From Thermoplasmatota archaeon (GTDB lineage: Archaea > Thermoplasmatota > Thermoplasmata > SG8-5 > JACRNV01), in assembly GCA_040753455.1 (NCBI GenBank), contig JBFMEL010000001.1:5810-69809 (forward strand): 64,000 nucleotides of DNA. Direction: 5' to 3'. Both the position numbers and the translations under genes were made by a program. Below, piece after piece: positions 23,920 through 64,000 of this stretch. How positions within the stretch are numbered: position 1 is the first letter of the stretch; each line of letters begins with the position of its first letter. The notes below the pieces were generated by a model. That model did not search any database. It had not been told where the DNA came from and worked only from the letters and a program-made list of their open reading frames with translations.

Positions 23920-24501
23920 GCAAGCGCATAGCCCATTGATGATAAAAATCTATCGAGATATGGAGATCTGCCCTCTGTGCATAGTATCTCGCATTCCATG
24001 CAACGACCTTTGAGATGTGCATCTCCACCTGCAGGATTCCGTGCCCGACCACTCGTCACCAGCGCATTCCATGCAACGACCTTTGAGAGCAGGTCAACGA
24101 TCCCACGGGCAGGTTTCAGGGCAACATCTTTTTATAATCAGAACCCCTCTTCACCACGCTAGGCTCGACCGGGGCGCTCGGCGTGCCCTTATACACCGAA
24201 ATCGTCGATAGCGGGGGTGACAGCTGAGGGCGGCGTAACCTGCCCTGCACGCGCCCTGTGCTCGACTATGAGACCCTGTCCTGCCGGGCGGGTGGCGGCT
24301 CTGCGGCGCAGCCGGAGGGCGGCGCCCTCTGCCCTGATCGTGGGGAACGGGTCAGGCCCTGACGGGAGCAGCCTAACCACGGATTACCTGCGCTGGCAGG
24401 GTTGCGGGGTCGAGAAGAGCACAGACATCCGCGCGCAGGAAAGGGCGACCACCTCAGCGGCCTAGCTCCCATCATATAATCAACACCAGGCCGCTGATCA
24501 A

Positions 24502-24960
24502 GACCACCACACAGCTACCCAACAGGACAGCTAACCCAGTGGTCGAATCCAGGGCGAGGAAACAATCTCCCATCATATTCTCGCCCTGTTCTCATCAACT
24601 TCCCAACGTTGATAGGACGTGAGGAGCATAAAAGCAAATAGAAAGCACCTCACGTCCGTATCCACGGCGAGGAAACAACCTCCAAGCGTATCCTCGCCGT
24701 GCTGCAAGCAGATAGCAACAACGATAGGACGTGAGGAGCATAAAAGCAAATAGAAAGCACCTCACGTCCGTATCCACGGCGAGGAAACAACCTCCAAGCG
24801 TATCCTCGCCGTGCTGCAAGCAGATAGCAACAACGATAGGACGTGAGGAGCATAAAAGCAAATAGAAAGCACCTCACGTCCGTGTCCACGGCGAGGAAAC
24901 AACCTCACATCATATACTCGCCGTGATAGACCGTGCTAGAATCAGATAGAAAGACCCTCA
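24502..24960. repeat. Modular hairpin-repeat locus 1: X1 element, Y hairpin, then three tandem 112-bp units (24611-24722, 24723-24834, 24835-~24946). Each unit holds an X2 and a Y hairpin.
   Basis: Units 1 and 2 are identical. X2 is ggacgtgagg-N23-cctcacgtcc. Y is (c)acggcgagga-aacaa...-(t)cctcgccgt(g). Confidence 0.7.
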
Positions 24961-27617: not shown

Positions 27618-27691
27618 GGGCCCGTGGGGTAGTCCGGACATCCTTTCGGCCTTCGGAGCCGATGACCCGAGTTCGAATCTCGGCGGGCCCG
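27618..27691 (+). tRNA. tRNA-Arg (anticodon TCG)
   Basis: Manual cloverleaf fold. Acceptor GGGCCCG/CGGGCCC. Anticodon stem TCGGC/GCCGA with loop CTTCGGA. T-arm CCGAG-TTCGAAT-CTCGG. Confidence 0.85.
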
Positions 27692-27833: not shown

Positions 27834-28215
27834 GGGCCCACATTTCTGTCCCGCAGAAAAAACGCAGCAGAAGAAATGTGGTAGGACGTGAGGAGCATAA
27901 AAGCAGATAGAAGCACCTCACGTCCGTGCCCAGGGCGAGGAAACACTCTCCTATCATATTCTCGCCCTGTTCGGAGCTCTAGGACAGACACAGCAAAAAC
28001 ACAGCAAAAGAAATGTGGTATAGACCACCTCACAGCTAACCAACAGGGCAGCTAACCAAGTGGTCGAACCCACGGCGAGGAAACAAACACACATCATATT
28101 CTCGCCGTGTTCTCAGCAAAAAAGAAACGCTGGTAGGACTACCGCACAACTAACCAATCGTGCAGTTAACCAAGTGGTCCGTACCCACGGCGAGGAAACA
28201 ATCTCTTCAGCCTAT
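27834..28215. repeat. Modular hairpin-repeat locus 2, immediately 3' of tRNA-Val: D hairpin, X2, Y, D-like, X1, Y, X1, Y
   Basis: D is cacatttctg-N-agaaatgtg. X2 is ggacgtgagg..cctcacgtcc. X1 is ggac(t/c)ac..cagctaacc..cagctaacc.agtggtcc. Y is ggcgagga-aaca..-ctcgcc. Confidence 0.65.
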
Positions 28216-35857: not shown

Positions 35858-35880
35858 TTATTTTATTAGCATATACGAGA

Positions 35881-36320
35881 CTCCTGGATAGGACTACCGC
35901 ACAGCTAACCAACTGGACAGCTAACCCAGTGGTCCGTTTCCGGGAGACGGGATCACATTTCTGTTTGCATCAATCAAGCAGAGAAAGAAATGTGATAGAC
36001 CGCAAGGAGCATAAAAGCAAACAAAAATCACCTTGCGGTCGTGTCTACGGCGAGGAAACAATCTCACATCGTATCCTCGCCGTGCTGCAAGCAGATAGAA
36101 ACACCGATAGGACTACCGCACAATTACCCAATATAACAGTTAACCAAGTGGTCCGTGTCCACGGCGAGGAAACAATCTCACATCGTATCCTCGCCGTGCT
36201 CTCATCATCCTCCCAGCAATGATAGGACGTGAGGAGCATAAAAGCAAGTAGAAAGCACCTCACGTCCGTGTCCAGGGCGAGGAAACAATCTCCCATCATA
36301 TACTCGCCGTGATAGAAGGA
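35881..36320. repeat. Modular hairpin-repeat locus 3, 3' of tRNA-Tyr: X1, D, X2 (variant stem), Y, X1, Y, X2, Y
   Basis: Same element families as loci 1 and 2. The X2 copy at ~36002-36040 has the stem gaccgcaagg/ccttgcggtc with the loop conserved. Confidence 0.65.
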
Positions 36321-36402
36321 GATAGAAACAAAGATAGGCCTCCTGGGTAGCTCACCCAATGAGGGGAGATCCCAATGGCCTCAGAAAATGTGAACCGTCC
36401 AT

Positions 36403-41418: not shown

Positions 41419-44400
41419 ATGTATGGCGATGCAGATAAAGGGATCATGTCAGATTCCGCCACCGGGGCGAAGGGCAAGAAGGGGCAGCAGAAGCACTCCA
41501 GGAAGATCGCGGCGCTCGCTGCAGTTATCGACGCCGCAAGGGCAAAGTTAAAGGAGACGGTGCAGAAACATTCTGGGAAGATCGCAGCACTCGGCGCTGT
41601 TATCGCCGGCGCGGCTGGCGGGTTCGGACTTGTCGGGCTCTTCACTGCAGCGCTGCCGTTCCTCGGTCACAGACTGGTCGGGGAGTTCGCAGCGGCTGTG
41701 GGCGTAGAAGGCCTTGTGAAACTCGGTGAGCGAGCAGTCACAGGCGAGCCTCTGAGAAAAGAGGACCTCAGGACGCTGGAGGAGGCGCAGAGCCGATTGA
41801 TGGAGTTGCTCGCAGACTCAGCGACAGCTACGCAAAACCTGCATGCTCTTTGCGCGCAACTTTTGCAGGAGGAGCAGCTCACCCAGCACCTGACGAGCGA
41901 CATGATCAAAAGCCTTCGCGACGATATAAATAAGCTCAGCGCAGAAAATCAGGAGCAGTTCTCTGAGATCATCGGAAAGCTCGACGCGCTCCAGGAGAAG
42001 CTCGAAGAAGTGCACGAAGAGGTGCGGCGCTGCGGGCTCGTCAGCTTGAAAGAGGAAGTCTCCAGCATCAGCCGGGAGGGTCTAGAAGAGCAGCACAAAA
42101 GATTCGATGAGTATTTTCTGGGCGGAGTCCCGTGGGGCGTAATCGTATACGAGATCGATGTGCGGCGCGAGGTCACGACAAAAATCATCAACAGATTGAA
42201 GGGGGGCAACAGCATGTTGCTCCTCGGCAAGAGTGGCTCCGGAAAGAGCACGATACTGAAGCGCGCGGCGTATCTGTTGTTTCTCGAAGGATACAACGTG
42301 TTTTACAACTGCGGCAGTATCGATGTGGAGCGCGCGTACAGGTTGCTCACGGAGGAAGAGGGTACAAAGGTCGTGGTTGTGGACGATGCTGATCTTCGCT
42401 GGGACGCTATCAAAGCACTGCACGAATGCTGCATAGAGCATGGGCGTACTGACATCGTGATGCTCTTAGCCGAGCGCACGGAGCGGTTCAAGCACGGCAC
42501 GGCAGGCACAGCTATCAAAGAAGAAAAATTGACACTCACCCGTAATGATGTAAAGGAGCTTTGGAGGTCCACTGGTGATGTTGTGCCAGTAAGAGATGAT
42601 GTGATGGACTTCCTCCTCCAGTGGTGCGGCGATGAGTATATCCTCGCCAAGATATACTCGCTGGGTTACACGGGCGATTCAGAAGAACGATTGGAGGAAC
42701 TGGCGCGCACACGGTATGAGGCGCTGAGGGAGTTGCCCCGAAACCTCAGGACACCACTATTTCCTATAGCATGCATGGCTGCGTACGATTGTGCGCTACC
42801 GCGAAGGGTGTTCGAGAGGTTAGGGCATGATGCTGCGGACCTTGAGGAGTTGGCGAGGCGCGGGTATGTATCTATCGAGGACAGTGCCCTGCGGGGCTAC
42901 CACCCGGTGATTGCGAAGAGGTTTCTCCGCTGCTATCTTGAAGGGGGGGCATATGATTTTGTAGATTGCGTTGTGAACCGCATCCTGCCGCGGCTCGGCG
43001 AGGGCGAAGAGAAAGAAGCTGACGCGGGACTGTGTTTCTCGCTGGGAACAAACATTGCTGTGGAGCAAGAAGATAGGATAGAAAAGGACAAAAAAGTGCT
43101 CGAGGTTGCATTGAAATCTCTGGACAGATGTCTCGAACTGACGCCCGACCACGCGGAGGCGTGGAACAACAAAGGCAACACGCTCGATAGCATGGACCGC
43201 TACGAGGACGCGCTCGTTGCTTATGATAAGGCGCTCGCCATCAACACGCAGTTGGCGGAGGCGTGGAATAACAAAGGCACCACACTCCACCATATGCAGC
43301 GCTGTGATGAGGCACTCGTCGCTTATGATATGGCACTTGCACTCAACCCAGACTATGTAGAGGCATGGAACAACAAAGGCACTCTGGTCTCCAACATGCA
43401 GCTGCATGATGAGGCACTAGCCGCTTATGATAAGGCACTTGCACTCAACCCCGACTATGCGGCGGCGTGGAACAACAAAGGTTTCATGCTCATACGCATG
43501 GAGCGCTATGATGAGGCGCTTGCCGCCTGCGACAAAGCGCTCCAGCTCAACTCGCGGTATGTGGAGGCGTGGAACAACAAAACCCTCGCGCTCGCCCACA
43601 TGCAGCGTTGTGATGAGGCGCTTGCCGCCTGCGAGGAAGCGCTCCAACTCAATCCACGGTATGCAGAGGCGTGGAACAACAAAGGCTTCACGCTCGCATG
43701 CATGGAGCGCTATGATGAGGCACTAGCCGCTTATGATAAGGCGCTCGAATTCAACCCGCAACTTGCAGAGGCCTGGAACAACAAAGGCAACACGCTCGCA
43801 CACATGCAGCGGTACGAGGAAGCGCTCGCCGCCCATGATAAGGCGCTCGAACTCAACCCGCAGTTGACGGAGGCGTGGTACAACAAAGGCAACACACTCA
43901 ACCAAATGCAACGCTATGATGAGGCGCTCGCCGCATACGACAAAGCGGTCGAACTCAATCCACAATTTGCGAAGGCGTGGAACAACAAAGGCCTCACGCT
44001 CGCACACGTGCAGCGCTACGAGGAAGCGCTCGCCGCTTATGATAGGGCGCTCGCCATCAACCATCAGCTTGCGGAGGTGTGGTACAACAAAGGCCTCACG
44101 CTCGCACACGTGCAGCGCTACGAGGAAGCGCTCGCCGCCTATGATAAGGCGCTTGCCATCAACCCGCAGTTGGCGAAGGGGTGGGGCGCGCGCGGGCTTA
44201 CGGAGCTGAGTATGGGGAGGTACGAACATGCGGCGTTTGATTCTGCATGTGCGCACTTTCTGACACGCCTTGGGATAGGGCAGGAGAGATTGTTGGAGCC
44301 AACCGCGCGTCAGTTCATGCAGGCTAGCGATGCGCTGCGCGGCACGGGTGCGTTCCACGATGCAGCCATCCTTTACGCTGTGATGGCTTTTGAGAAAAGG

Positions 44401-44691
44401 GCTGAAGTTGCTGCGCCATTGTGGCGTGAACGTGAGAAGATCACACACATACTTGCCCGCTGCATGCTGTACGATATCGTGGGCGAAGCGCTGACCGAGA
44501 TTAAGCCGGCGATGGATGAGGAGCGCAAAGTAATCGAATGGTATGCCCGCAGCTTGGCGGAGAAAAAGGTCCATGAGGAGTTCCGGGAATACCTTTGGGC
44601 GCTGGTGCGCGGCGACGCGCGGCGCGACGCGGCGTTTGCACTTGCCACATTGTACCTGCTCGTGGAAGAAGGCGTGATGGTTTCGCCATAG
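41419..44691 (+). CDS. STAND-type P-loop NTPase: N-terminal TM/coiled-coil region, central NTPase and ~13 C-terminal TPR repeats
   Basis: Walker A LLLGKSGSGKSTILKRAAYLL and Walker B VVVVDDAD. Hydrophobic segment AALGAVIAGAAGGFGLVGLFTAALPFL. The repeated AWNNKGxxLxxMxRYDEALAAYDKAL module is a TPR. The true start is possibly the Met at 41446. Confidence 0.75.
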   Translation: MYGDADKGIMSDSATGAKGKKGQQKHSRKIAALAAVIDAARAKLKETVQKHSGKIAALGAVIAGAAGGFGLVGLFTAALPFLGHRLVGEFAAAVGVEGLVKLGERAVTGEPLRKEDLRTLEEAQSRLMELLADSATATQNLHALCAQLLQEEQLTQHLTSDMIKSLRDDINKLSAENQEQFSEIIGKLDALQEKLEEVHEEVRRCGLVSLKEEVSSISREGLEEQHKRFDEYFLGGVPWGVIVYEIDVRREVTTKIINRLKGGNSMLLLGKSGSGKSTILKRAAYLLFLEGYNVFYNCGSIDVERAYRLLTEEEGTKVVVVDDADLRWDAIKALHECCIEHGRTDIVMLLAERTERFKHGTAGTAIKEEKLTLTRNDVKELWRSTGDVVPVRDDVMDFLLQWCGDEYILAKIYSLGYTGDSEERLEELARTRYEALRELPRNLRTPLFPIACMAAYDCALPRRVFERLGHDAADLEELARRGYVSIEDSALRGYHPVIAKRFLRCYLEGGAYDFVDCVVNRILPRLGEGEEKEADAGLCFSLGTNIAVEQEDRIEKDKKVLEVALKSLDRCLELTPDHAEAWNNKGNTLDSMDRYEDALVAYDKALAINTQLAEAWNNKGTTLHHMQRCDEALVAYDMALALNPDYVEAWNNKGTLVSNMQLHDEALAAYDKALALNPDYAAAWNNKGFMLIRMERYDEALAACDKALQLNSRYVEAWNNKTLALAHMQRCDEALAACEEALQLNPRYAEAWNNKGFTLACMERYDEALAAYDKALEFNPQLAEAWNNKGNTLAHMQRYEEALAAHDKALELNPQLTEAWYNKGNTLNQMQRYDEALAAYDKAVELNPQFAKAWNNKGLTLAHVQRYEEALAAYDRALAINHQLAEVWYNKGLTLAHVQRYEEALAAYDKALAINPQLAKGWGARGLTELSMGRYEHAAFDSACAHFLTRLGIGQERLLEPTARQFMQASDALRGTGAFHDAAILYAVMAFEKRAEVAAPLWREREKITHILARCMLYDIVGEALTEIKPAMDEERKVIEWYARSLAEKKVHEEFREYLWALVRGDARRDAAFALATLYLLVEEGVMVSP

Positions 44692-52874: not shown

Positions 52875-53414
52875 ATGAAGAAAGAGATAAGGATCGCGGG
52901 CTTCGGGGGTCAGGGCGTGGTGCTGGCAGGTGTCATCCTCGGCAGGGCTGCATGCGTGTATTCTGAGTACAACGCTGTGCAGAGCCAGTCCTATGGCCCA
53001 GAGGCAAGGGGTGGTGCGGCGAGATCCGAGGTCATCATATCCGATGAAAAGATCGGCTATCCCAGACCCACCAGTGTGGATCTGTTCGCTGCCATGGCGC
53101 AGGAGGCGTTCGACACCTATGTGAAGGACGTGAGAGAGGATACGATCATCATCATAGACCCAGACCTCGTGCCCCGTCATGATATCGGGCGCCCGCTGTA
53201 CAAAGTGAGGGCGCAGAAGATCGCTGAGGAGCTGGGGAATAAGGTGGTGACAAATATCGCAATGGTCGGCGGGATCACAGGGATCTTCACACTCTTGAGC
53301 CCGGAGGCTGTGAAGCAGGCGGTGATAGACTCCGTGCCCGCGCGCTTCAAGGAACTGAACGTCAAGGCGTTCGAGAAAGGCTTAGAGGCAGGTAGAGATG
53401 CCAGACCCGAGTGA
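52875..53414 (+). CDS. korG: 2-oxoacid:ferredoxin oxidoreductase gamma subunit
   Basis: MKKEIRIAGFGGQGVVLAG is the canonical gamma-subunit start. Confidence 0.8.
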   Translation: MKKEIRIAGFGGQGVVLAGVILGRAACVYSEYNAVQSQSYGPEARGGAARSEVIISDEKIGYPRPTSVDLFAAMAQEAFDTYVKDVREDTIIIIDPDLVPRHDIGRPLYKVRAQKIAEELGNKVVTNIAMVGGITGIFTLLSPEAVKQAVIDSVPARFKELNVKAFEKGLEAGRDARPE

Positions 53415-56400
53415 GATCATTCACAGGTACTACGAGGACGTCCCCCTTGCAGACGATTACCTCGTCCTTGTACCAGAGATCATGATGCTGGACGACGAGG
53501 TCTCAGAGGGATATGCCCCAGCCCTGAGGGCGGAGATGGCGATCCGCAGGATCAAGAGAACGATGGAGGGGGACGTGCTGGTCGTGGGTGCGGGCATCGC
53601 GGGCATGCAGGCTGCGCTCGACATCGCGGACAAGGGCTACAGGGTGGTGCTGGTGGAGAAATCCTCCACCATCGGGGGAAATATGGTCAAGCTGGACAAG
53701 ACCTTCCCCACCAACGACTGCTCGATCTGCACCTCCGCGCCGAAGATGGTGGAAGTATCAAGGCACCCGAACATCAAGCTGCTGACCTATGCCGAGCTCG
53801 CAAGGTTAGAGGGCAGTGCCGGAGACTTCACGGCTCATGTATACAGAAAGAGCAGGTACGTGGATCCCGAGAAGTGCACAGGCTGCGACGACTGCGCTGT
53901 GGTGTGCCCCGTGGAGATCGTCAATCCCTTCGATGAGCGCTTGTCCAAGCGCAAGGCGATATACATCGAGTTCCCGCAGGCTGTGCCCATCGTGTACACC
54001 ATCGATTACGAGCACTGCGTGGGCTGCGGCGCATGCGAGCGCGCGTGCGAGCCTGGCGCGATCTCCTTTCTACAGAAATCTGAAGATATAGAGGTAAGGG
54101 TGGGCAGCGTCATCGTCGCCACGGGCTACGAGCTCTTCGAGCCCCTGGAGATGCGCAGAGAGTATGGATATGGAAAATATTCAAATGTAATTACAGCGAT
54201 GCAGTTCGAGCGCCTCTTATCCTCCTTCGGACCCACTGAGGGAAAGGTCAGACGCCCGTCGGACGGTGCCAAGCCCAGGTCTATCGCATGGATCCAGTGC
54301 GTTGGGTCGAGGAGCAAGCAGCTCGGGTTCCCGTACTGCTCCAGGGTCTGCTGCATGTACGCGACCAAGGAAGCCTCGATCACTAAGGAGGCAGAGCCAG
54401 ATACAGATATCACGATATTCTACATGGACCTCCGCGCCTATGGGAAGGACTTCCAGCAGTATTACGAGGATGCCAAGAAACTGGGCGTGAACTATGTGCG
54501 TGCTCGCCCCTCCTCCATATACCAGAACGAGGACAAGAGCATCACGATCAGGTACATGGACACCCACACCAGGGAGGTGAAGGAAAAAACTGTGGACCTG
54601 CTGGTGCTCTCCACAGCGATCATGCCGTCGAGGGAGAACAAGCGCCTTGCCAGCGTTCTGGGGATAGAGGTGGACGAGAGCGGTTTCTTCAGGGCAAGAT
54701 CCACAGTCACTGACCCTATCGCCTCCACGCGCGATGGCGTCTACCTTGCAGGCTGCATCCAGGGTCCGAAGGACATCCCGGACAGCGTGGCGATGGGCAG
54801 CGGTGCAGCCGCGAGAGCCATGGTGCCGATCATTGGAAGGGCGAAGACCGCGCCGCCACCCCCGCCGCCGGAGAGGGACGTGAGCTCAGAGCCTCCTAAG
54901 ATAGGGGTATTTGTCTGCCACTGCGGCAAGAACATCGCCAACTACGTGGATGTGGAGGCTGTGACCAGGTACGCGCAGTCCCTGCCTAACGTGGTGTACG
55001 CCACGCACGAGATGTTCGTCTGCTCCGAGGATATCCAGAAGAAGATCAAGGAGCAGATCAAGGAGGAGGGGCTGAACAGGGTCATTGTGGCGGCATGCTC
55101 CCCGCGCACCCATGGTCCCCTGTTCCAGGATACGATGGTCGCAGCAGGGCTGAACAAGTACCTCTTCGAGATGGCGAACATCCGCAACCAGTGCTCGTGG
55201 GTGCACTCTCACGAGCCCGAGAGGGCGACACAGAAATCCAAGGGGTTGGTGGCGATGGCAGTGACCAGGGCATCGCTGCTCGAGCCACTAACGGAGAGCG
55301 ATTTCACGGTGATTCCAAGGACGCTGGTGATCGGTGGAGGGCTGTCCGGGATGAGGGCAGCGATCGCGCTGTCAGAGATGGGGATCGAATCGTTCATCGT
55401 CGAGCGGGAAGAGGAGCTGGGTGGCATCCTCAAACACCTTCATTCCCTATTCCCCGCAGAGACCAAAGCCTCGGATATCATAGAGCCGCTCATCACCAGG
55501 GTGAAGAACGATCCACGCATCACCGTGTACACTGGGGCGGAGCTGCTCAGCGTCGAGGGTTTCATCGGCAACTTCAAGGCTAAGCTCAACACGCACGAGG
55601 GCGAGAAGGAGATAGAGTTCGGCACTGCGATCATCGCCACAGGGTTCAGGGAGATTGACCTCAAGGGGAGATACGCTCATGGCACGCATCCCGGGATCGT
55701 CACACAGACAGAGCTCGAGAGGATGCTGAAGGAGGGCACGGTGCCCCCACTAAAGCACGTGGTGATCATCAACTGCGCAGGTGCGATGGACGACGAGCGC
55801 CCGTACTGCTGCCGCATAGGCTGCGGCGTCTCGATAAAGAACGCGAAACTGCTCAAGGATATCAATCCCAACATGGAAATAACCATCCTCTACCGCGACA
55901 TCAGAGTGTTCGGGAAGGACGAGGAGGAATACTACGGGCGCGTGATAGAAGACAAGAGGGTGAAGATCATACGGTACCTGAAGGAAGAACAGCCAGCAGT
56001 ATCCGTGAGCGAGAAGGGTGATTTAGGCGTCAGGGTGAGGGATGCTGTGTACGGTGATGAGTTCGAGCTGCCCGCGGACCTGGTGGTGCTCACTGCTCAG
56101 ACAGAGGGAGGTGCTGATGTCGAGCGGCTTAAGAAGATGCTGAAGGTGCCCACTGACGCAGGCGGCTTCTTCACCGAGGCACATGCAAAGATACGCCCCC
56201 TGGATTTCGCTTCAGATGGTGTGTATGTGTGCGGCAGTGCCCACTATCCCAAGAACCTCGCGGACACGATCGCGCAGGCTGAGGGTGCTGCATCGCGCGC
56301 TGCGATACCGATACTGCGGGGGATGGTCAGGGGAGAGGGCATAGTATCCTCCATAGACCCGGACAGATGCTCGGGCTGCGGTCTCTGCGTCGGCGTATGC

Positions 56401-56562
56401 CCTTACGGCGCCATCTCCCTGGAGAGGGGTGTGGGGGTGGTGAACGTCGCGCTCTGCAAGGGCTGCGGCGCCTGTGCAGCCATCTGCCCATCGGGCAGCG
56501 CCAGGCAGATGGGATACAGGGACAACCAGATCTTAGCGATGTTAGGGGCTGCGATGACGTAG
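53398..56562 (+). CDS. hdrA: Giant (1054 aa) tandem-duplicated heterodisulfide reductase subunit A-like flavoprotein
   Basis: Two successive FAD-dependent HdrA modules (VLVVGAGIAGMQAALD and TLVIGGGLSGMRAA). Each has inserted ferredoxin CxxCxxCxxxCP motifs. An internal HdrA N-terminal Cys cluster (VFVCHCGKNIA) is present. Confidence 0.8.
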   Translation: MPDPSEIIHRYYEDVPLADDYLVLVPEIMMLDDEVSEGYAPALRAEMAIRRIKRTMEGDVLVVGAGIAGMQAALDIADKGYRVVLVEKSSTIGGNMVKLDKTFPTNDCSICTSAPKMVEVSRHPNIKLLTYAELARLEGSAGDFTAHVYRKSRYVDPEKCTGCDDCAVVCPVEIVNPFDERLSKRKAIYIEFPQAVPIVYTIDYEHCVGCGACERACEPGAISFLQKSEDIEVRVGSVIVATGYELFEPLEMRREYGYGKYSNVITAMQFERLLSSFGPTEGKVRRPSDGAKPRSIAWIQCVGSRSKQLGFPYCSRVCCMYATKEASITKEAEPDTDITIFYMDLRAYGKDFQQYYEDAKKLGVNYVRARPSSIYQNEDKSITIRYMDTHTREVKEKTVDLLVLSTAIMPSRENKRLASVLGIEVDESGFFRARSTVTDPIASTRDGVYLAGCIQGPKDIPDSVAMGSGAAARAMVPIIGRAKTAPPPPPPERDVSSEPPKIGVFVCHCGKNIANYVDVEAVTRYAQSLPNVVYATHEMFVCSEDIQKKIKEQIKEEGLNRVIVAACSPRTHGPLFQDTMVAAGLNKYLFEMANIRNQCSWVHSHEPERATQKSKGLVAMAVTRASLLEPLTESDFTVIPRTLVIGGGLSGMRAAIALSEMGIESFIVEREEELGGILKHLHSLFPAETKASDIIEPLITRVKNDPRITVYTGAELLSVEGFIGNFKAKLNTHEGEKEIEFGTAIIATGFREIDLKGRYAHGTHPGIVTQTELERMLKEGTVPPLKHVVIINCAGAMDDERPYCCRIGCGVSIKNAKLLKDINPNMEITILYRDIRVFGKDEEEYYGRVIEDKRVKIIRYLKEEQPAVSVSEKGDLGVRVRDAVYGDEFELPADLVVLTAQTEGGADVERLKKMLKVPTDAGGFFTEAHAKIRPLDFASDGVYVCGSAHYPKNLADTIAQAEGAASRAAIPILRGMVRGEGIVSSIDPDRCSGCGLCVGVCPYGAISLERGVGVVNVALCKGCGACAAICPSGSARQMGYRDNQILAMLGAAMT

Positions 56563-56582
56563 GGAGAATGACGATAATGTGA

Positions 56583-57029
56583 TTGATGGAGGTTGCATGG
56601 ATGGACGAGAAAAACGGTTTCGAGCCGAAGATCATCGGGTTTCTCTGCAACTGGTGCAGCTATGCCGGTGCAGACCTGGCAGGGGTGAGCAGGATCCAGT
56701 ACCCGCCCAACGTGCGGGTAATAAGGGTCATGTGCTCCAGCAGGGTGGACCCTATCTTTGTGCTCAGGGCATTGACGGATGGAGCAGACGGCGTATTGAT
56801 AGCAGGCTGTCATCCTGGTGATTGCCATTACATCGAGGGGAACTACCGCACGAGGCGGAGGGTTGCTGCACTGAAAAGGATCCTCGAGAAGTATGGGCTG
56901 AGCGACAGGCTCTTCCTTGAATGGGTGAGCGCAAGCGAGGGAAAGAAGTTCGCGGAGGTGGTGACAAAGGTCACCAACACCATCAAGGAGCTTGGACCAA
57001 ACCCGCACAGAAAGATATGGGAGATCTAG
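56583..57029 (+). CDS. mvhD: MvhD/FlpD-like [2Fe-2S] subunit
   Basis: [17 protein letters not shown]...[10 protein letters not shown] is the MvhD signature. Confidence 0.8.
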   Translation: MMEVAWMDEKNGFEPKIIGFLCNWCSYAGADLAGVSRIQYPPNVRVIRVMCSSRVDPIFVLRALTDGADGVLIAGCHPGDCHYIEGNYRTRRRVAALKRILEKYGLSDRLFLEWVSASEGKKFAEVVTKVTNTIKELGPNPHRKIWEI

Positions 57030-57039
57030 GGGTGAAAGG

Positions 57040-58062
57040 ATGCCTACGTATAAAATAGAGGAGAGGGAAATCCAGAGGATCCTCGAACATCTGCTGGTCA
57101 AGGGTATCGTCGAAGGGGTCATGCTCCAGGTCAGGGGGGAGCATGGTGTCTTTACAGCCCTCGTCGCAGATCCTGCACGTATCGCAAGTGCTGTGCCGCT
57201 GGCTCCGCTGTTCTCCGGCAACACCGCCGTCTACCTTCAGAACAATGGAAGGAGGAAGATCGCAGTTGTGGTGAAGCCGTGCGAAGCCAGGGCGATCAAC
57301 GAGCTGAAGAAATTAAATCAGATAAACCTGGACGATCTCATCGTGATATGCAGCGACTGCCTGGGGACGGTGGATCCCAAGGGGGTCACGGAGCCGCTGA
57401 CCGATGCAAAAAAGAAGGAGCTCATGAGGAGCGCGTGCAGGGTCTGCGAGCACTTCACGCCCCCAGAGGTGGATCTCAGCATCCTGACCATTGGGACTGG
57501 GGATGGGTGCATCGTTGCCACTGAGAGGGCAGAGCTCCTCGAAGGCTTGAACCTGAGGTGTGAGGAGATCCCAGAGGCACGGGAGCACGAGATCCAAAAG
57601 ATCCGAAAGGAGCGGCTCAAGCACAAGGAAGAGATGACCAAGGAGATGATAAAAAAGTTATCTGCTCCAGGTTCGCTTGCAGAGGCATTGAGCCACTGCA
57701 TACGCTGCGACAACTGCAGGGAGGTGTGCCCACTCTGCTACTGCAAGGAATGCTACTTCGAAACCCCTTTGGGGGATCTAAGAACAGACGGGATGCTGCA
57801 TCAGGCAGCGATAAAAGGGATACTGAGAGTTCCCCCGGACATCCTTTTCTATCATCTCACCAGGCAGATCCATGTCGCCGCGGGATGCGTGGGATGCGGA
57901 GCATGCGAAGAAGCATGCCCGAGAGAGATCCCCCTGCTGTCGATATGGAAGGCGGTGGCACCTGATGTCCAGGCGCTGTTCGACTATGTGGCAGGGATGG
58001 AGAAGGACGTGCCGCTGCCCATGGTGCAGTTCAAAGAGGAAGAGCTCGAAGAGGTGAAGTGA
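57040..58062 (+). CDS. FrhB/FdhB-family (coenzyme F420-reducing hydrogenase beta subunit-like) iron-sulfur flavoprotein
   Basis: FrhB-type N-terminal domain plus C-terminal CIRCDNCREVCP and CVGCGACEEACP. Start at MPTYKI. Confidence 0.7.
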   Translation: MPTYKIEEREIQRILEHLLVKGIVEGVMLQVRGEHGVFTALVADPARIASAVPLAPLFSGNTAVYLQNNGRRKIAVVVKPCEARAINELKKLNQINLDDLIVICSDCLGTVDPKGVTEPLTDAKKKELMRSACRVCEHFTPPEVDLSILTIGTGDGCIVATERAELLEGLNLRCEEIPEAREHEIQKIRKERLKHKEEMTKEMIKKLSAPGSLAEALSHCIRCDNCREVCPLCYCKECYFETPLGDLRTDGMLHQAAIKGILRVPPDILFYHLTRQIHVAAGCVGCGACEEACPREIPLLSIWKAVAPDVQALFDYVAGMEKDVPLPMVQFKEEELEEVK

Positions 58063-60047
58063 GGTTGGAGGGAGCTACGAAGATAGGCGTATACGTCTGC
58101 GAGTGCGGGATCAATATCTCAGCCGCTGTGGACGTGGCAAAGGTCGCAGAGCATGCAAAGGGATTGCCTGATGTTGTGGTGAGCAGGTACTACAAATACA
58201 TGTGCTCCGACCCTGGACAGTCCCTCATAAAGAATGATATAAAGGAGATGGGGCTCACCCACGTGGTGGTAGCCTCCTGCTCCCCGAGGATGCACGAGCC
58301 CACCTTCAGAGCGGTGGTCGAGGAGGGGGGGGTGAACCCCTACTGCTTCGAGATGGCGAACATCAGGGAGCACTGCTCCTGGGCGCACATGCGTGAAAAG
58401 GATAAGGCGACAGAGAAAGCAAAGGACCTGGTGAGGATGGCCGTAGCCAAGGCAAGGCTGCTTCGACCGCTGCAGAGAAAGCAGGTGCCCGTCACGCCCG
58501 CCGCGCTGGTGATCGGGGGTGGGATCGCAGGCATACAAGCCGCGCTGGAGATCGCAGAGAGCGGGTTCAAGACCTACCTGGTAGAGCGGACACCGAGCAT
58601 CGGGGGTCGCATGGCGCAATTAGACAAGACCTTCCCCACACTGGACTGCTCCGCCTGCATCCTCACACCTAAGATGGTGGATGTCGCCAGGCACCCCAAC
58701 ATCGAGCTGCTCACATACTCGGAGGTCACGGGTGTCGAGGGATACATCGGCAACTTCAAGGCGACAGTAAAGAAGAAAGCCAGATATGTGGACATAGACA
58801 AATGCGTGGGCTGCGGTCGGTGCGCCGAGGCATGCAGGCTAAAGGGACGTGTAGCCGACGAGTTCAATGAGAAACTCGGCAAACGCAGTGCGATATACGT
58901 GCCGTTTCCTCAGGCAGTGCCGCTGAAGTACACGATCGACCCAGAGCGTTGCATATTTTTAAAGACTGGTAAATGCGGCGACTCCCCGCTGTGCGTGGAA
59001 GCCTGTGAGGCAAATGCCATCGACCATCAGCAGAAAGATGATGTCGTTGACCTTGAAGTGGGCACCATCGTTGTGGCGACAGGCTTCGATCTATACGATC
59101 CATCCCAGAAACCAGAATACGGGTATGGAAAGATCAAAAATGTGATCACTGGCTTGGAGTTCGAGAGGCTCGTATCCGCCTCTGGTCCCACAGGGGGGCA
59201 CATCGAGGTAAACGGTAAGGAGCCCAGGAGGGTGGTCTTCATCCAGTGCGTGGGATCGAGGGACAAGGAGGGCAACGAGTACTGCTCGCGCGTGTGCTGC
59301 ATGTACACAGCCAAGCACGCGCATCTCGTGAGGGAGAAGATCCCCGGCGCCAATGTCACGATCTATTATACCGATGTAAGAGCCTTTGGTAAAGGTTTCG
59401 AGGAGTTCTACAACAGGGTGAAGGGCGAGGGCGTTGCATACCGCAGAAGGGAGCTGGACGATGCCATCGAGGTCGTGGAGGATGATGGCAGGACCATCGT
59501 CAAAGCCCAGGGCCACGAAGATATAGAGGCAGACTTGGTGGTGCTGGCGACCGCGATCGTTCAGCGAACAGATATCGAAGAGCTTGCCAGGGTGTTGAAG
59601 GTCTCACGCGGTGCAGACGGCTTCTTCCTGGAGATTCATCCAAAACTAAGACCCATGGACACTGCCACCGGAGGGATATTCATAGCAGGCTGCTGCCAGT
59701 CCCCAAAGGATATCCCTGACACGGTCGCGCAGGCGAGCGGTGCGGCAGCCAAGGCATCGATACCCCTCTCGCAGGGGAAGATCGATCTAGACCCCCAGAG
59801 GTCTGAGGTCATCGATGAGAACTGCGACGGCTGCGCATACTGCATAGAGCCGTGTCCGTTCAAGGCACTGACATTAATCGAGTATATGCGGGATGGCGCG
59901 ATCAAGAAGACGGTGGAAGCAAATGAGGCTCTGTGCCAGGGCTGCGGTGTCTGCCAAGCCACGTGTCCCAAACAGGGGATCATCGTGAGAGGGTTCACGA
60001 CCAAGCAGATCTCTGCAATGGTCGATGCCCTTCTCGGGGTGGTGTAG
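58059..60047 (+). CDS. hdrA: Heterodisulfide reductase subunit A
   Basis: N-terminal Cys cluster [13 protein letters not shown] motif [13 protein letters not shown], and inserted ferredoxin domains. GTGA overlap start. Confidence 0.9.
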   Translation: MRLEGATKIGVYVCECGINISAAVDVAKVAEHAKGLPDVVVSRYYKYMCSDPGQSLIKNDIKEMGLTHVVVASCSPRMHEPTFRAVVEEGGVNPYCFEMANIREHCSWAHMREKDKATEKAKDLVRMAVAKARLLRPLQRKQVPVTPAALVIGGGIAGIQAALEIAESGFKTYLVERTPSIGGRMAQLDKTFPTLDCSACILTPKMVDVARHPNIELLTYSEVTGVEGYIGNFKATVKKKARYVDIDKCVGCGRCAEACRLKGRVADEFNEKLGKRSAIYVPFPQAVPLKYTIDPERCIFLKTGKCGDSPLCVEACEANAIDHQQKDDVVDLEVGTIVVATGFDLYDPSQKPEYGYGKIKNVITGLEFERLVSASGPTGGHIEVNGKEPRRVVFIQCVGSRDKEGNEYCSRVCCMYTAKHAHLVREKIPGANVTIYYTDVRAFGKGFEEFYNRVKGEGVAYRRRELDDAIEVVEDDGRTIVKAQGHEDIEADLVVLATAIVQRTDIEELARVLKVSRGADGFFLEIHPKLRPMDTATGGIFIAGCCQSPKDIPDTVAQASGAAAKASIPLSQGKIDLDPQRSEVIDENCDGCAYCIEPCPFKALTLIEYMRDGAIKKTVEANEALCQGCGVCQATCPKQGIIVRGFTTKQISAMVDALLGVV

Positions 60048-60461
60048 ATGACGAACGATCATGAGCCCCTGCTCGTGGCATTCTGCTGCAACTGGTGCTC
60101 GTACGCAGGCGCTGATTTAGCCGGCACATCCAGAACCCAGTATCCGCCCAATGTCAGGATAATAAGGGTGATGTGCTCAGGGATGGTGCACCCCAACCTT
60201 GTGATCGACACGCTCACCAAGGGCGCTGATGGCGTCCTGATGTGCGGCTGTCATCCCGGTGATTGCCACTACATCGAGGGGAATCTAAGGGCTGAGAAGC
60301 GCGCGGAGGCGATACGTCTCATGCTGGAGGACATGGGGTTTGAACCTGAACGATACAGGTTGGAATGGATCTCTGCCTCGGAAGGGCAGCGGTTCGCCGA
60401 GGTCGTGAAAGAGATGGTCGAACAATTGAAGGCGCTAGGTCCGAACCCATACAGGGCGTAG
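60048..60461 (+). CDS. mvhD: MvhD/FlpD-like subunit (second copy)
   Basis: [17 protein letters not shown]...[10 protein letters not shown]. Confidence 0.85.
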
Positions 60462-60529
60462 GTGATCATACGAGCAATGAGGCGGATGTATCAGGCGGCG
60501 AGGTCGCGACGACCAACGATAAACCAAGG

Positions 60530-61792
60530 GTGGGCGTATACGTCTGCGAGTGCGGGATCAATATCTCAGCCACTGTGGATGTGCCTGAGGTCGCAGAGGA
60601 TGCAAAGGGATTGCCTGATGTGGCAGTGAGCAGGTACTACAAATACATGTGCTCCGACCCTGGGCAGTCCCTCATAAAGAATGATATAAAGGAGCTCGGG
60701 CTCACCCACGTGGTGGTAGCCTCCTGCTCACCGAGGATGCACGAGCCCACCTTCAGAGCAGCGGTCGAGGAAGCGGGAGTGAACCCCTACTGCTTCGAGA
60801 TGGCGAACATCAGGGAGCACTGCTCCTGGGCGCACATGCATGAAAAGGATAAGGCGACAGAGAAAGCAAAGGACCTGGTGAGGATGGCCGTAGCCAAGGC
60901 AAGGCTTCTTCGGCCCATAGAAAAGATGCGTGTGCCCGTCACCCCCGCCGCACTGGTGATTGGTGGGGGGATCGCAGGCATACAAGCCGCGCTGGACATA
61001 GCAGACAGAGGGTTCAAGACCTACCTGATAGAGCGGACACCGAGCATCGGGGGTCGCATGGCGCAATTAGACAAGACCTTCCCCACACTGGACTGCTCCG
61101 CCTGCATCCTCACGCCCAAGATGGTGGATGTCGCCAGGCACCCCAACATCGAACTGCTCACATACTCGGAGGTCGCCGGGATCGGTGGATATGTAGGCAA
61201 TTACAAAGTGAAGGTCAAGAAGAAGGCAAGATCGGTGGACGGATCGAAATGTACCGGGTGCGGGCTGTGCACAGAGCACTGCCCAGTGATCCTTCAGCCG
61301 CAGATACAGGAGATGCCAAAAGAGGCGCCTTCTGTGAGAGACAAGGAATTCATCGAGGGGCTGATCGCCAAGCATTCGCATCTTAAGGCTCCTGTGGTGC
61401 AGATCCTGCTGGACGTGAACGAGAAATACAGATACCTTCCAAAGGAGATCCTGAGATATCTCTCCTTTAGGCTGGAGATGCCGCTGAGCACCATATACAG
61501 AGTCGCTACCTTCTATAAAGCGCTCAGTCTCGAAATGAGGGGGAAATACCATATAAAAGCCTGCCTGGGCACCGCCTGCCACGTGAGAGGCGCCAGAAAG
61601 GTCGTTGACGCGATCAGGGACTACATCGCCAAGACAGAAGAAGGGCTCTTCTCCCTCGAGCCCGTGAACTGCCTCGGCGCATGCGCCCTTGGTCCTATCA
61701 TGGTGGTGAACGAGGAGTACCATGGACACATGACCATCGACAAGGTAGCTGAAATACTCACATCCCTGGAGGGAGGCAATGAAAAAGATTAA
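60530..61792 (+). CDS. Chimeric protein: N-terminal ~240 aa of HdrA fused to a NuoE-like thioredoxin-fold [2Fe-2S] domain
   Basis: The first ~700 nt are ~93% identical to hdrA at 58083-58790. The C-terminus has NuoE/HoxF-type motifs [10 protein letters not shown]...[12 protein letters not shown] start at 60530. Confidence 0.7.
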
Positions 61793-63644
61793 GAACCCCG
61801 AAGAACTGAGAAACCTGCGAAAGGCGATCCAGGATGGAAAGGACCCAGATAAAACAGTCGTTACTGTTTGCAAGGGCACGGGGTGTGTAGCATCCGGGTC
61901 CGAGCCCCTCATCAACGCCTTCAGGGAAGAGATAGAAAAGCGGAAGATCCAGGACAGGGTCGAGGTGCGGGTCACCGGGTGTCATGGTTTCTGTGAAAAA
62001 GGGCCTATCGTCGTCATATATCCCAGCAGGATATTCTATCCCATGGTCATCCCGGAGAAGGTGCCTGCTATTATCTCCGAGACGGTGCTTGAGAACAGAA
62101 TCATCGAGGATATGCTATATGTCGATCCCACCACGGGTGAGAAGATCATCTATGAGCATGATGTCCCGTTCTACAAGAAGCAGACCAGAACGATCCTGGC
62201 CAACAACGGACTGATAGATCCAACGAGCATAGAAGATTACATCGGTACGGGCGGTTATTTCGCGCTCGCAAAAGCACTTACCAGTATGACGCCAGAAGAG
62301 ATCATCAGCGAGGTCAAAGCCTCTGGGTTGAGGGGGCGCGGGGGCGCAGGTTTCCCCACAGGGGTCAAATGGGAGTTCTGCAGAGCTGCGAAGGGCGAGC
62401 AGAAGTACATCATCTGCAACGGTGACGAGGGCGATCCCGGTGCCTACATGGACAGGAGCGTGCTGGAGGGCAATCCGCACAGCGTGATAGAGGGGATGAT
62501 CATAGGAGCCTATGCCATAGGTGCGAGCAAGGGCGTAGCCTATGTGAGAGCCGAGTATCCGCTGGCAGTCCATAACCTCGACATTGCGATCAACCAGGCA
62601 AAGGAGCTCGGCTTGCTGGGCGACAACATCCTTGGAAGCGGGTTTGATTTCGAGCTCTGGATTTACAGAGGTGGTGGAGCCTTTGTGTGCGGCGAAGAAT
62701 CTGCTCTTATCGCATCGATCGAGGGCAGGTCGGGGGAACCGAGACAGCGCCCGCCGTTCCCTGCGCAGTCCGGGCTCTGGGGCTGCCCCACGAATATCAA
62801 CAATGTGGAGACATGGGCGAACGTTCCCCACATCATAAGCAGGGGGGCTGAGTGGTATGCCAGCATCGGGACCGAGAGCAGCAAGGGCACGAAGATCTTC
62901 TCGCTCGTGGGGAAGGTGAACAATACCGGTCTGGTGGAGGTGCCCTTTGGCACAACGCTGAGGACGATCATATTCGAGATCGGTGGGGGCATTCCGGGGG
63001 CTCGAAAATTCAAGGCGGTACAGTCCGGAGGACCATCGGGGGGATGCATCCCTGCTGAACATATAGATACCCAGGTCGATTACGCGGAGCTTACCAAGCT
63101 GGGCTCGATCATGGGCTCCGGCGGTTTGATCGTCATGGACGAGGACACATGCATGGTCGATGTTGCCAGATACTTCATATCCTTCACCCTGGACGAATCC
63201 TGCGGGAAGTGCACGTCGTGCAGGGAAGGCAACGCCCAGATGTTAGAGATGCTGAAGGATATCTGCGATGGCAAAGGCAAGGAGAGCTACCTGCCCATGC
63301 TCGAGGAACTGTGTGGGTACATCAAGGAGACCTCGATGTGCGCCCTCGGGGGCACAGCCCCGAACCCTGTGCTCACCACACTGAGATATTTCAGGGACGA
63401 ATATATGGCTCACATACAAAGGAAAGAATGCCCTGCCAAGGTGTGCAAAGCCCTGATCTTTTATCAGATTGACCCAGAGAAATGCACTGGATGCGGCATG
63501 TGCGCCAAGAAATGCCCGATGGGCGCCATATCAGGGGAGAGGAGGCAGCCACATGTGATAGACAGGGAGATATGCACGAGATGTGGCACGTGCCATGCCA
63601 CGTGCAAGTTCGATGCCATCCTTGTCAGGACAGGAGGGGGTTGA
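61779..63644 (+). CDS. nuoF: NuoF-like NAD(H)-binding FMN iron-sulfur subunit with an N-terminal thioredoxin-like [2Fe-2S] domain and C-terminal 2x[4Fe-4S]
   Basis: [15 protein letters not shown] (FMN/NADH site), [10 protein letters not shown] ([4Fe-4S]), and C-terminal [12 protein letters not shown] / [11 protein letters not shown]. Confidence 0.85.
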
Positions 63645-63646
63645 AC

Positions 63647-64000
63647 ATGGTGACTGTAGAGCTCGACGGCACTAAGTTCGATGTCGATGAAGGCATGACC
63701 GTCCTCGATGCTGCCAGGAAACACAACATCGAGATCCCCACCCTCTGCTACAACAAGGCGCTCTCTCCTTACGGCGCATGCCGCCTGTGCGTGGTGGAGA
63801 TACTGAGCGCGAGGGGAGCGCAGTTAGCATCTGCGTGCACGTATCCAGTATCCGAGGGGCTGAGGGTGATCACAAACTCCGAAAAGGTGCAGAAGAGCAG
63901 AAGGCTGACGCTCGAACTATTACTAGCGCGCTGCCCGGAGGAGGAAGTGGTAATCAACCTGGCAAAGGAGCATGGGATCAGCGAGACGAGGTTCAAGAAG
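63647..64000 (+). CDS. NuoG/formate-dehydrogenase/HndD-like subunit, N-terminal [2Fe-2S] ferredoxin domain (3'-truncated by the window end)
   Basis: MVTVELDGTKFDVDEGMTVLDAARKHNIEIPTLCY...CRLC is the standard NuoG-type 2Fe-2S N-terminus. An RBS GGAGGGGG lies upstream. Confidence 0.55.
   Translation, partial: MVTVELDGTKFDVDEGMTVLDAARKHNIEIPTLCYNKALSPYGACRLCVVEILSARGAQLASACTYPVSEGLRVITNSEKVQKSRRLTLELLLARCPEEEVVINLAKEHGISETRFKK

Follow-up and report, generated by a model that had tools for sequence, protein, structure and literature searches.

Patchy gene conversion from hdrA has very probably overwritten both halves of an ancient split HdrA in a Thermoplasmatota archaeon

The stretch of DNA analyzed here (64,000 nucleotides (nt) of contig JBFMEL010000001.1 from a Thermoplasmatota archaeon, assembly GCA_040753455.1; hereafter the window) contains a full-length hdrA gene and, downstream of it, a gene in which the N-terminal part of HdrA (HdrA-N) is fused to a NuoE-type thioredoxin-like [2Fe-2S] domain. 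Our results make it very likely that patches of hdrA were copied fairly recently, by gene conversion, into the two halves of an ancient split HdrA, one of which is fused to NuoE and the other to a NuoG-like N-terminus. The original prediction had attributed the similarity between hdrA and the fusion gene to a recent recombination event that produced a new HdrA-N::NuoE fusion. Recent recombination does explain the identity, whereas the fusion itself is ancient, is found in syntenic positions in relatives and was not created by this event.

A mosaic of similar tracts in hdrA and the fusion gene

The two genes were compared ungapped at a fixed offset of 2447 nt. Positions 58086-58793 and 60533-61240 align gap-free with 64 mismatches in 708 nt (91.0% identity), and the first 630 nt of this stretch (58086-58715, hdrA codons 10-219, versus 60533-61162) with 44 mismatches (93.0%), in good agreement with the value of about 93% that had been given for the 5' third of hdrA and 60530-61240. 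The longest exact run shared by both genes is 85 nt. As had also been noted, this identity is far above that of other HdrA paralogues: the third paralogue of the window (55147-55280) reaches 71-72% across the best-conserved 134 nt, and the corresponding pairs of four other genomes are saturated at synonymous sites (see below). The described divergence downstream was seen as well, with 74% identity in 61163-61240 and only 10-30% beyond 58850/61297, and the second copy indeed continues into the NuoE-type domain. The minus-strand open reading frames (ORFs) 58119-58619 and 60728-61066, which had been reported as duplicated, are present and share their translations; they are a trivial by-product of the repeat.

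Within the similar stretch, which is bordered at about 60533 and 61162, converted tracts alternate with diverged patches (Table 1). Runs of identical third codon positions extend up to 42 and 34 codons (P = 0.0003 for the top three runs in a permutation with differences placed at random). The linker at 60905-60931 retains the fusion-type sequence PIEKMRV (compare PLEKMKI in protein P0002), where HdrA has PLQRKQV, and another divergent patch reads ALDIADRG in the fusion and ALEIAESG in HdrA. Since the residues of each copy in the divergent patches match those of its own orthologues, these patches were apparently never converted, rather than converted and mutated afterwards. The ratio of nonsynonymous to synonymous differences (pN/pS) within the tracts is about 0.1.

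The proportions pS and pN were estimated according to Nei and Gojobori over 236 homologous codons of the hdrA/fusion pair (Table 1). Because pS is saturated in the four other genomes, the two paralogues must be ancient, and only the pair in the window has been homogenized. In locus L085, the only relative for which it was measured, the nucleotide identity of the pair is about 76%. The two mvhD genes of the window are not homogenized (pS 0.70, pN 0.31). Conversion would thus have taken place long after the divergence of the paralogues, with a pS of about 0.1 in the tracts versus saturation elsewhere. Constraint or convergence at the protein level could also account for the likeness of the N-terminal thirds in the absence of recombination, and the HdrA-N half is generally very conserved (mean top-residue frequency 0.75, versus 0.59 for the NuoE half). 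However, the identity extends to synonymous sites, at which pS is about 0.1 here and 0.73-0.81 for the same codons in the four other genomes, so that the probability of this explanation is negligible.

hdrA as the likely donor

Neighbour-joining trees with bootstrapping were calculated region by region along the gene. For residues 93-153, the fusion and the HdrA of the window are sisters in 82% of the bootstraps, and a split of HdrAs versus all fusions is recovered in 0%. For residues 215-262, this split reaches 93%, the window fusion nests among P0002 and P0004, and its pairing with the window HdrA drops to 0%. Sliding windows gave the same picture: up to 61162 the fusion is 88-100% identical to its own hdrA and 53-88% to the best orthologous fusion, and from 61163 on the ranking flips, with the orthologous fusions closer than the own hdrA. 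The window gene is thus orthologous to other fusions, and not to hdrA, in the 3' fifth of the homologous region, at the junction and in the NuoE domain.

The direction of transfer can be read from residues 93-128, which are 97% identical to the own HdrA, 92% and 89% to two HdrA orthologues, and only 51-63% to fusions without an HdrA-type block; P0003, which has such a block, reaches 83%. The block in the window fusion includes a diagnostic one-residue insertion typical of HdrA. Among 96 fusion-length proteins in which the block length could be parsed (21 further sequences could not be parsed), it is 49 amino acids (aa) long in 92, of the HdrA-type length of 50 aa in three and 47 aa long in one. 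Furthermore, the nonsynonymous distance (dN) of the N-terminal half of the window fusion is 0.124 to the L085 HdrA versus 0.170 to the L085 fusion. The smaller distance to HdrA and the HdrA-type block identify hdrA as the donor, at least from residue 93 on.

The three other fusions with a 50-aa block are P0003 (L001, 2660-3973), P0010 (L091, 7745-9034) and P0012. The block of P0003 resembles that of HdrA P0114, and those of P0010 and P0012 resemble the L087-type HdrA. In the NuoE part the window fusion is 65% identical to P0003 and 72% to P0001 and P0002; since P0003 is therefore not its sister there, the P0003 block appears to be independent. The contig of P0003 (L001) carries no hdrA, and the adjacent HdrA in L091 was tested as donor of the P0010 block and found not to be the donor. 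These observations are suggestive of conversions in at least two further fusion lineages, independent of the event in the window.

Paralogues under concerted evolution by gene conversion are known in prokaryotes, for example tufA and tufB of Salmonella. As in that case, the intragenomic paralogues described here are more alike than orthologues, with mosaic tracts and low synonymous divergence. In contrast to tufA/tufB, however, the recipient is not a whole-gene duplicate but two gene fragments of a split homologue inside fusion genes.

Age and distribution of the fusion

A protein search with the 420-aa product of the fusion gene returned at least 8000 matches (clusters at 90% identity), the best 120 of which were examined. 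The architecture HdrA-N plus PF01257 is present in 117 of these 120, with lengths of 416-534 aa; these matches cover 95-100% of the query at identities from 78% down to 52%. Named sources of the best 120 include Euryarchaeota, Spirochaetales, Gemmatimonadota and unclassified bacteria, among others. In a Euryarchaeota metagenome-assembled genome (MAG; L085, GCA_016214785.1), the gene order of the window is preserved gene for gene, including the upstream genes at 53398-58062 (double HdrA, mvhD and FrhB/FdhB-like FeS protein) and the pyruvate:ferredoxin oxidoreductase genes upstream. hdrA lies directly upstream of the fusion in L087 and L095 (Spirochaetales bacterium), and the fusion is present without an upstream hdrA in L001, L088, L089 and L091. 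A scan of genome contigs with the whole fusion yielded mostly ordinary HdrA genes, with fusions in L002 and L076 among the matches listed; a scan of metagenome contigs with the NuoE half yielded nothing above 48% identity. Overall, the HdrA-N::NuoE architecture is ancient, conserved and widespread.

These data bear directly on the proposed birth of a new chimeric gene in this lineage, in which a recently duplicated 5' third of hdrA would have joined nuoE. Such an event would account for the high nucleotide identity over about 630 nt and for the abrupt loss of similarity downstream, but it is at odds with fusions of 52-78% identity in syntenic operons across archaea and bacteria. L085, L087, L091 and L095 carry the fusion with a paralogue pS of 0.73-0.81, and this saturation excludes that the fusions in the databases all arose in independent recent events. 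Moreover, fusion-type patches occur inside the similar region, the last 80 nt or so of HdrA homology and the junction are orthologous to other fusions, and a second tract lies in another gene. We therefore regard a new chimera as highly improbable.

A split HdrA and a second tract in the third gene

Residues 1-255 of the fusion align gap-free to residues 6-260 of the HdrA structure 5ODC_A (E = 4.7e-123, 70% identity), and residues 271-414 match HydC (7P5H_C, E = 3.9e-36). PF01257 was found at residues 276-413 with 132.1 bits versus a cut-off of 24.8 (E = 1.8e-38). The HdrA homology stops just past the CxxCxxCxxxC(P) motif, at 5ODC residue 260. With 396 bits the fusion stays below the cut-off of 1100 for the NCBIfam model HdrA2; it carries only the first CxxCxxCxxxCP motif and lacks the C-terminal ferredoxin domain of HdrA, and the thioredoxin-reductase-like domain binding flavin adenine dinucleotide (FAD) is incomplete on this polypeptide, its remainder being located on the product of the third gene. 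The gene is an old, conserved one for a NuoE/HydC (BfuC)-type [2Fe-2S] subunit, the N-terminus of which corresponds to about the first 255 residues of HdrA. This part spans the N-terminal FeS domain and the beginning of the FAD domain, with the Cys197 equivalent, and extends to the first motif of the inserted ferredoxin domain.

The third gene is cut by the end of the window. The first 117 aa of P0245, a 598-aa protein from the same 77,233-bp contig, are identical to the window ORF 63647-63997, so that the genome possesses the complete split set; the gene is not orphaned, since the missing two thirds of HdrA are encoded two genes downstream. The assumption that the third gene is short or unannotated here was rejected once full-length P0245 turned up. 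P0245 consists of a NuoG/HoxU-like N-terminus fused to HdrA residues of about 257-650. In the third protein of L085, residues 189-598 match HdrA2 model positions 252-646 (E = 6.6e-131), residues 163-593 are 59% identical to window HdrA 249-659 (BLASTP, E = 7e-173), and the protein covers 5ODC_A 257-646. Its N-terminus (residues 3-176) matches the NuoG-like chain 9MQX_A, with Fer2_4 at 1-78 and Fer4_21 at 119-175, and the N-terminus of P0245 is alike. As the fusion covers 5ODC_A 6-260 and the third protein 257-646, the two products are exactly complementary, with HdrA interrupted after the first cysteine motif of its inserted ferredoxin domain. All 12 fetched loci that reach the third gene have the order fusion, nuoF, NuoG-N::HdrA-C, as does L095, giving 13. 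As read from its sequence, the operon thus is HdrA(1-258)::NuoE, NuoF, NuoG-N::HdrA(257-650), in which a NuoE-NuoF-NuoG(N) module separates the two pieces of a split HdrA.

The third-gene family is large and carries generic names. Its archaeal members come from Thermoplasmatota, Promethearchaeota, Heimdallarchaeaceae, Theionarchaea, Methanofastidiosia and Syntropharchaeia, its bacterial members from Spirochaetales, Dehalococcoidia, Anaerolineae and Planctomycetota. A word-indexed search with the 117-aa fragment returned only short 2Fe-2S proteins and missed both the exact P0245 and the L085 ortholog (69% identical), which were found with the full-length query; absence from such a fragment search is therefore weak evidence. 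No published account of an HdrA-NuoE fusion or of a split HdrA was found, although the HdrA-module review of Appel et al. 2021 may cover it.

Several variants of the operon were encountered. In the two operon copies of MAG GCA_030670795.1 (L082, 2377-5541; L083, 2093-5266), the NuoF-like protein (1054-1057 aa) carries a fused FAD/NAD(P) domain of the GltD/NfnB-like type, with the split-HdrA genes still flanking. In the uncultured archaeon LFW-68_2 (L076, 11938-18065), the HdrA-N::NuoE ORF is shorter (about 316 aa) and the third ORF, bearing NuoG-N and HdrA-C, is much longer (about 1080 aa). The genes 3' of the operon vary (L091, 12688-16383; L092, 5595-9593; L087-L090). Some sets consist of hdrA, mvhD, DUF5981 and a MetFV-like methylenetetrahydrofolate reductase (MTHFR) gene, others of mvhD, two FeS protein genes and a gene for an FAD/NAD-binding (Flx-like) protein, followed by a NiFe-hydrogenase small subunit gene. 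This variety suggests that one module linked to NADH (reduced nicotinamide adenine dinucleotide) serves several acceptors.

P0245 shares a second identical tract with the HdrA of the window (Table 1). All 100 residues are identical over HdrA residues 398-497, and 95.7% over 336-497; in this region, orthologous third proteins share just 79-81% of their residues with P0245, and 79-80% over 398-497. The corresponding intragenomic pairs of HdrA and third protein are 85% (L085), 66% (L087) and 65% (L095) identical over residues 398-497. The flanks of the tract in the window pair (51%, 76% and 32%) are no more alike than pairs in other genomes. Because this tract sits in a different gene, a single segmental duplication, as originally proposed, is excluded, whereas gene conversion can produce both. 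Through non-reciprocal homologous recombination, hdrA sequence would have replaced several stretches of the fusion gene, each about 40-280 nt long, as well as at least 300 nt of the third gene.

A false mosaic could also have resulted from assembly or binning, either by mixing of hdrA reads into the fusion locus or through a cross-strain consensus. The sequence is a MAG contig, and assemblers are known to be prone to errors at repeats spaced 2.4 kb apart. However, the longest exact run is below the typical read length, so that the copies are resolvable, and both copies are intact, in frame and distinct, many of the 64 differences being paralogue-specific. Path switching, moreover, exchanges sequence and does not generate similarity. 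P0245, annotated separately on the same contig, shows a like phenomenon, and HdrA-type blocks also occur in fusions from other samples (P0003, P0010, P0012). An artefact is therefore considered very unlikely.

Table 1. Genes, domains, tracts and paralogue comparisons. Positions refer to the window; nucleotide identity is that between fusion gene and hdrA; pS and pN, proportions of synonymous and nonsynonymous differences.
Feature	Positions	Strand	Nucleotide identity	pS	pN	Remarks
Double hdrA	53398-56562	+				1054 aa
mvhD, first copy	56583-57029	+				
FrhB/FdhB-like FeS protein gene	56992-58062	+				
Full-length hdrA	58059-60047	+				662 aa; MEW5936252.1; exact match to P0065
mvhD, second copy	60048-60461	+				137 aa; MEW5936253.1; PF02662
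HdrA(1-~255)::NuoE/HydC/BfuC fusion gene	60530-61792	+				420 aa from GTG 60530
NuoF/HydB/BfuB-like subunit gene	61779-63644	+				621 aa; MEW5936254.1
Third gene, 5' end	63647-64000	+				window ends; full product P0245, 598 aa
CxxCxxCxxxC(P) motif of fusion	61250-61282	+				C241, C244, C247, C251; matches first motif of HdrA inserted ferredoxin domain
NuoE/HydC-type thioredoxin-like [2Fe-2S] domain of fusion	61355-61768	+				ligands C345, C350, C381, C385
Fusion segment	60533-60571		100%	0		converted
Fusion segment	60572-60625		83.3%	0.29		patch, partly diverged
Fusion segment, tract I	60626-60904		96.4%	0.10		converted
Fusion segment, linker	60905-60931		55.6%	0.84		unconverted
Fusion segment, short tract II	60932-60994		92.1%	0.25		converted
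Fusion segment	60995-61030		86.1%	0.13		patch, partly diverged
Fusion segment, tract III	61031-61162		97.7%	0.09		converted
Fusion segment	61163-61240		74.4%	0.65		hdrA homology persists, unconverted; groups with orthologous fusions
Second conversion tract in hdrA	59250-59549	+				codons 398-497; protein 100% identical to P0245 residues ~324-423
hdrA/fusion pair, window				0.218	0.052	
hdrA/fusion pair, L085				0.78	0.157	
hdrA/fusion pair, L087				0.81	0.204	
hdrA/fusion pair, L091				0.78	0.23	
hdrA/fusion pair, L095				0.73	0.173	

Coding status of the fusion gene

Conservation was analyzed in 118 family members. The HdrA N-domain cysteines C6, C8, C41, C66 and C98 as well as C189 and C192 are 96-100% conserved, as is the GxGxxG motif. 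The four cysteines of the CxxCxxCxxxC(P) motif are 99-100% conserved, and the NuoE ligands (C-x4-C ... C-x3-C) are 100% conserved. C189 and C192 correspond to 5ODC residues 194 and 197 (5ODC numbering is higher by five), making C192 the equivalent of Cys197.

HdrA, MvhD and NuoF of the window have exactly matching NCBI records (Table 1), and MvhD and NuoF carry consecutive accessions despite the position of the fusion gene between them; the fusion gene was presumably either not called or annotated as a pseudogene. Downstream of the mvhD stop, GTG 60530 is the sole in-frame start codon of a canonical type. A strong Shine-Dalgarno-like motif (GGTGAT, 60461-60466) is followed by an out-of-frame ATG at 60477. 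A frameshift as cause of the missing start was rejected, as the upstream region is in frame with that of L083 and merely 3 nt shorter.

Conversion could be real and the fusion gene nevertheless a decaying pseudogene here, in which case the event would have no functional meaning. This would fit the missing protein accession, the loss of the relatives' start codon, which leaves only GTG 60530, right at the first beta-strand, and the out-of-frame ATG behind the Shine-Dalgarno-like motif. On the other hand, the 420 codons are uninterrupted, all 15 conserved ligand cysteines are present, pN/pS is low within the tracts, the adjoining nuoF and third gene are both annotated and intact, and several relatives begin only two residues ahead of GVYVCECG. 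Decay of the gene is therefore unlikely.

Several points nevertheless weigh against gene conversion between hdrA and a functional split HdrA. The TTG used as start in L083, the closest fusion orthologue, is GCG here, neither possible translation of the fusion gene is contained in the NCBI-derived protein collection, and expression from GTG 60530 is a prediction. The mosaic was read from the assembled sequence of a MAG contig alone, and the second tract was seen at the protein level only, the DNA of P0245 in that region lying beyond the window end. Transfer cannot be given a direction for residues 2-92, where HdrAs of the closest clade are interspersed with its fusions. Among the fusion homologues the best reaches 78% identity, and no closer relative was found by which the events could be dated. 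Finally, the functional model outlined below, a reassembled HdrA wired to a Bfu core, is a prediction from homology and gene order.

Gene context and other repeats

The product of the full-length hdrA matches the HdrA2 model with 837 bits over residues 8-659. The NuoF-like protein consists of an N-terminal thioredoxin-like [2Fe-2S] domain, a site for flavin mononucleotide (FMN) and NADH, a [4Fe-4S] cluster and a C-terminal 2x[4Fe-4S] domain. It contains PF01512 and PF10589, a partial PF01257 at residues 23-101 and two Fer4 motifs at 562-613, and it passes NF010120 with 395.6 bits versus a cut-off of 389.

Other repeats of the window lie apart from these genes. An element of about 112-114 nt forms short tandem arrays of 2-4 units at three intergenic loci: 24530-24950, directly 3' of the archaeal signal recognition particle (SRP) RNA (24157-24467); 27850-28205, 3' of a tRNA (27618-27691); and 35880-36340. 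Each unit contains two perfect hairpins, GGACGTGAGG...CCTCACGTCC and ACGGCGAGG...CCTCGCCGT; the predicted fold of one unit has -44.6 kcal/mol (z = -6.9), and no matching Rfam family was found for the element. Furthermore, a 102-nt (34-codon) unit is repeated in tandem at least nine times, with 66-76% identity, at 43132-44247 inside ORF 41419-44691 (1090 aa); this looks like a repetitive protein-domain array.

Predicted function and relation to known systems

Judged by homology and gene order, the two HdrA pieces would rebuild one HdrA-type FAD module, which would be wired via the NuoG-N clusters to an NADH/ferredoxin-reactive core of the HydBC type. MvhD and the neighbouring HdrA proteins may act as further partners, much like in BamGHI-BamF-BamE, and an NAD(H)- and ferredoxin-coupled bifurcating activity of the operon is predicted.

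By analogy, the closest functional counterpart is probably class II benzoyl-CoA reductase. In the Bam(B-I) complex of Geobacter metallireducens, BamGHI are HydBC/NuoEFG-like, BamF is MvhD-like and BamE is a fused HdrA dimer, and the HydBC-like BamGHI arm feeds the HdrA-type BamE via BamF (bioRxiv 10.64898/2026.04.10.717634); the complex is named Bam-Bfu in Schut et al. 2022 (PMC9304861). In both systems a NuoE/NuoF/NuoG-like NADH/ferredoxin module occurs together with MvhD-like adaptors and an FAD module of the HdrA type, the window cluster having nuoE-, nuoF- and nuoG-like genes, two mvhD and several hdrA genes. In Bam, however, HdrA is present as one complete (doubled) chain that is connected via BamF and BamI, whereas one HdrA here is divided near residue 258, with one piece covalently joined to the NuoE-like and the other to the NuoG-like subunit. 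No gene for the tungsten protein BamB or the HdrBC-like BamD was found beside the fusion within the window.

The operon also resembles the HydABC/Bfu enzymes (PMC9304861). The C-terminal half of the fusion is a HydC/NuoE-type [2Fe-2S] domain (HydC structures 7P5H_C and 8A6T_C), the neighbouring HydB-type NuoF has the extra N-terminal [2Fe-2S] and C-terminal 2x[4Fe-4S] that are hallmarks of BfuB, and the third gene begins like BfuA/NuoG with N-terminal [2Fe-2S] and [4Fe-4S] clusters. The difference lies in the 'third-substrate' domain, which here is two thirds of HdrA on BfuA plus one third on BfuC; a keyword search of the Bfu classification (PMC9304861) did not reveal a split-HdrA type. Compared with HdrA of HdrABC-MvhAGD (5ODC), the N-domain cysteines and the Cys197 equivalent (C192) are kept and fusion and third protein together cover 5ODC_A, but the full HdrA fold is not present on any single polypeptide of the split operon.

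In HdrA, Cys197 of the partner protomer completes the N-domain cluster, which lies en route to ferredoxin, and heterodimeric and fused HdrA paralogues with complementary loss of the N-domain or Cys197 are known from anaerobic methanotrophic (ANME) archaea (Chadwick et al. 2022, PMC9012536). As in these, the domains are spread here over several polypeptides, which would have to pair for the N-domain cluster to be complete, and the 1054-aa double HdrA of the window is of the same kind. In the ANME proteins, however, whole domains are deleted or duplicated, whereas the split described here cuts through the inserted ferredoxin domain and has the NuoEFG(N) module in between.

If split and full-length HdrA formed one heterodimer, with the N-domain clusters completed in trans by Cys197 of the partner, matching interfaces would be favoured and the overwriting might be selected. 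The combined proposal that the split-HdrA operon represents an undescribed, widespread class of tandem electron-bifurcating enzymes, with a HydBC-type core in the ferredoxin-exit domain, and that the overwriting was selected via such a heterodimer is tentative and in our view rather doubtful.

Conclusions

Gene conversion itself is ordinary, and the split-HdrA operon together with its repeated homogenization is of moderate specialist interest. High intragenomic identity alone should not be taken as evidence for the birth of a gene. The case described here is one of clean concerted evolution in prokaryotes, in which two separate pieces of a split homologue were templated by one whole gene, and conversion of this kind can mislead HdrA phylogenies as well as automatic annotation. 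Furthermore, the operon demonstrates that a break within the inserted ferredoxin domain of HdrA is possible, with a NuoE-NuoF-NuoG(N) module placed between the pieces, an arrangement that occurs in Thermoplasmatota, Asgard archaea, Dehalococcoidia, Spirochaetales and others. It predicts an NADH/ferredoxin-linked HdrA enzyme that would couple two bifurcation modules, comparable to class II benzoyl-CoA reductase.

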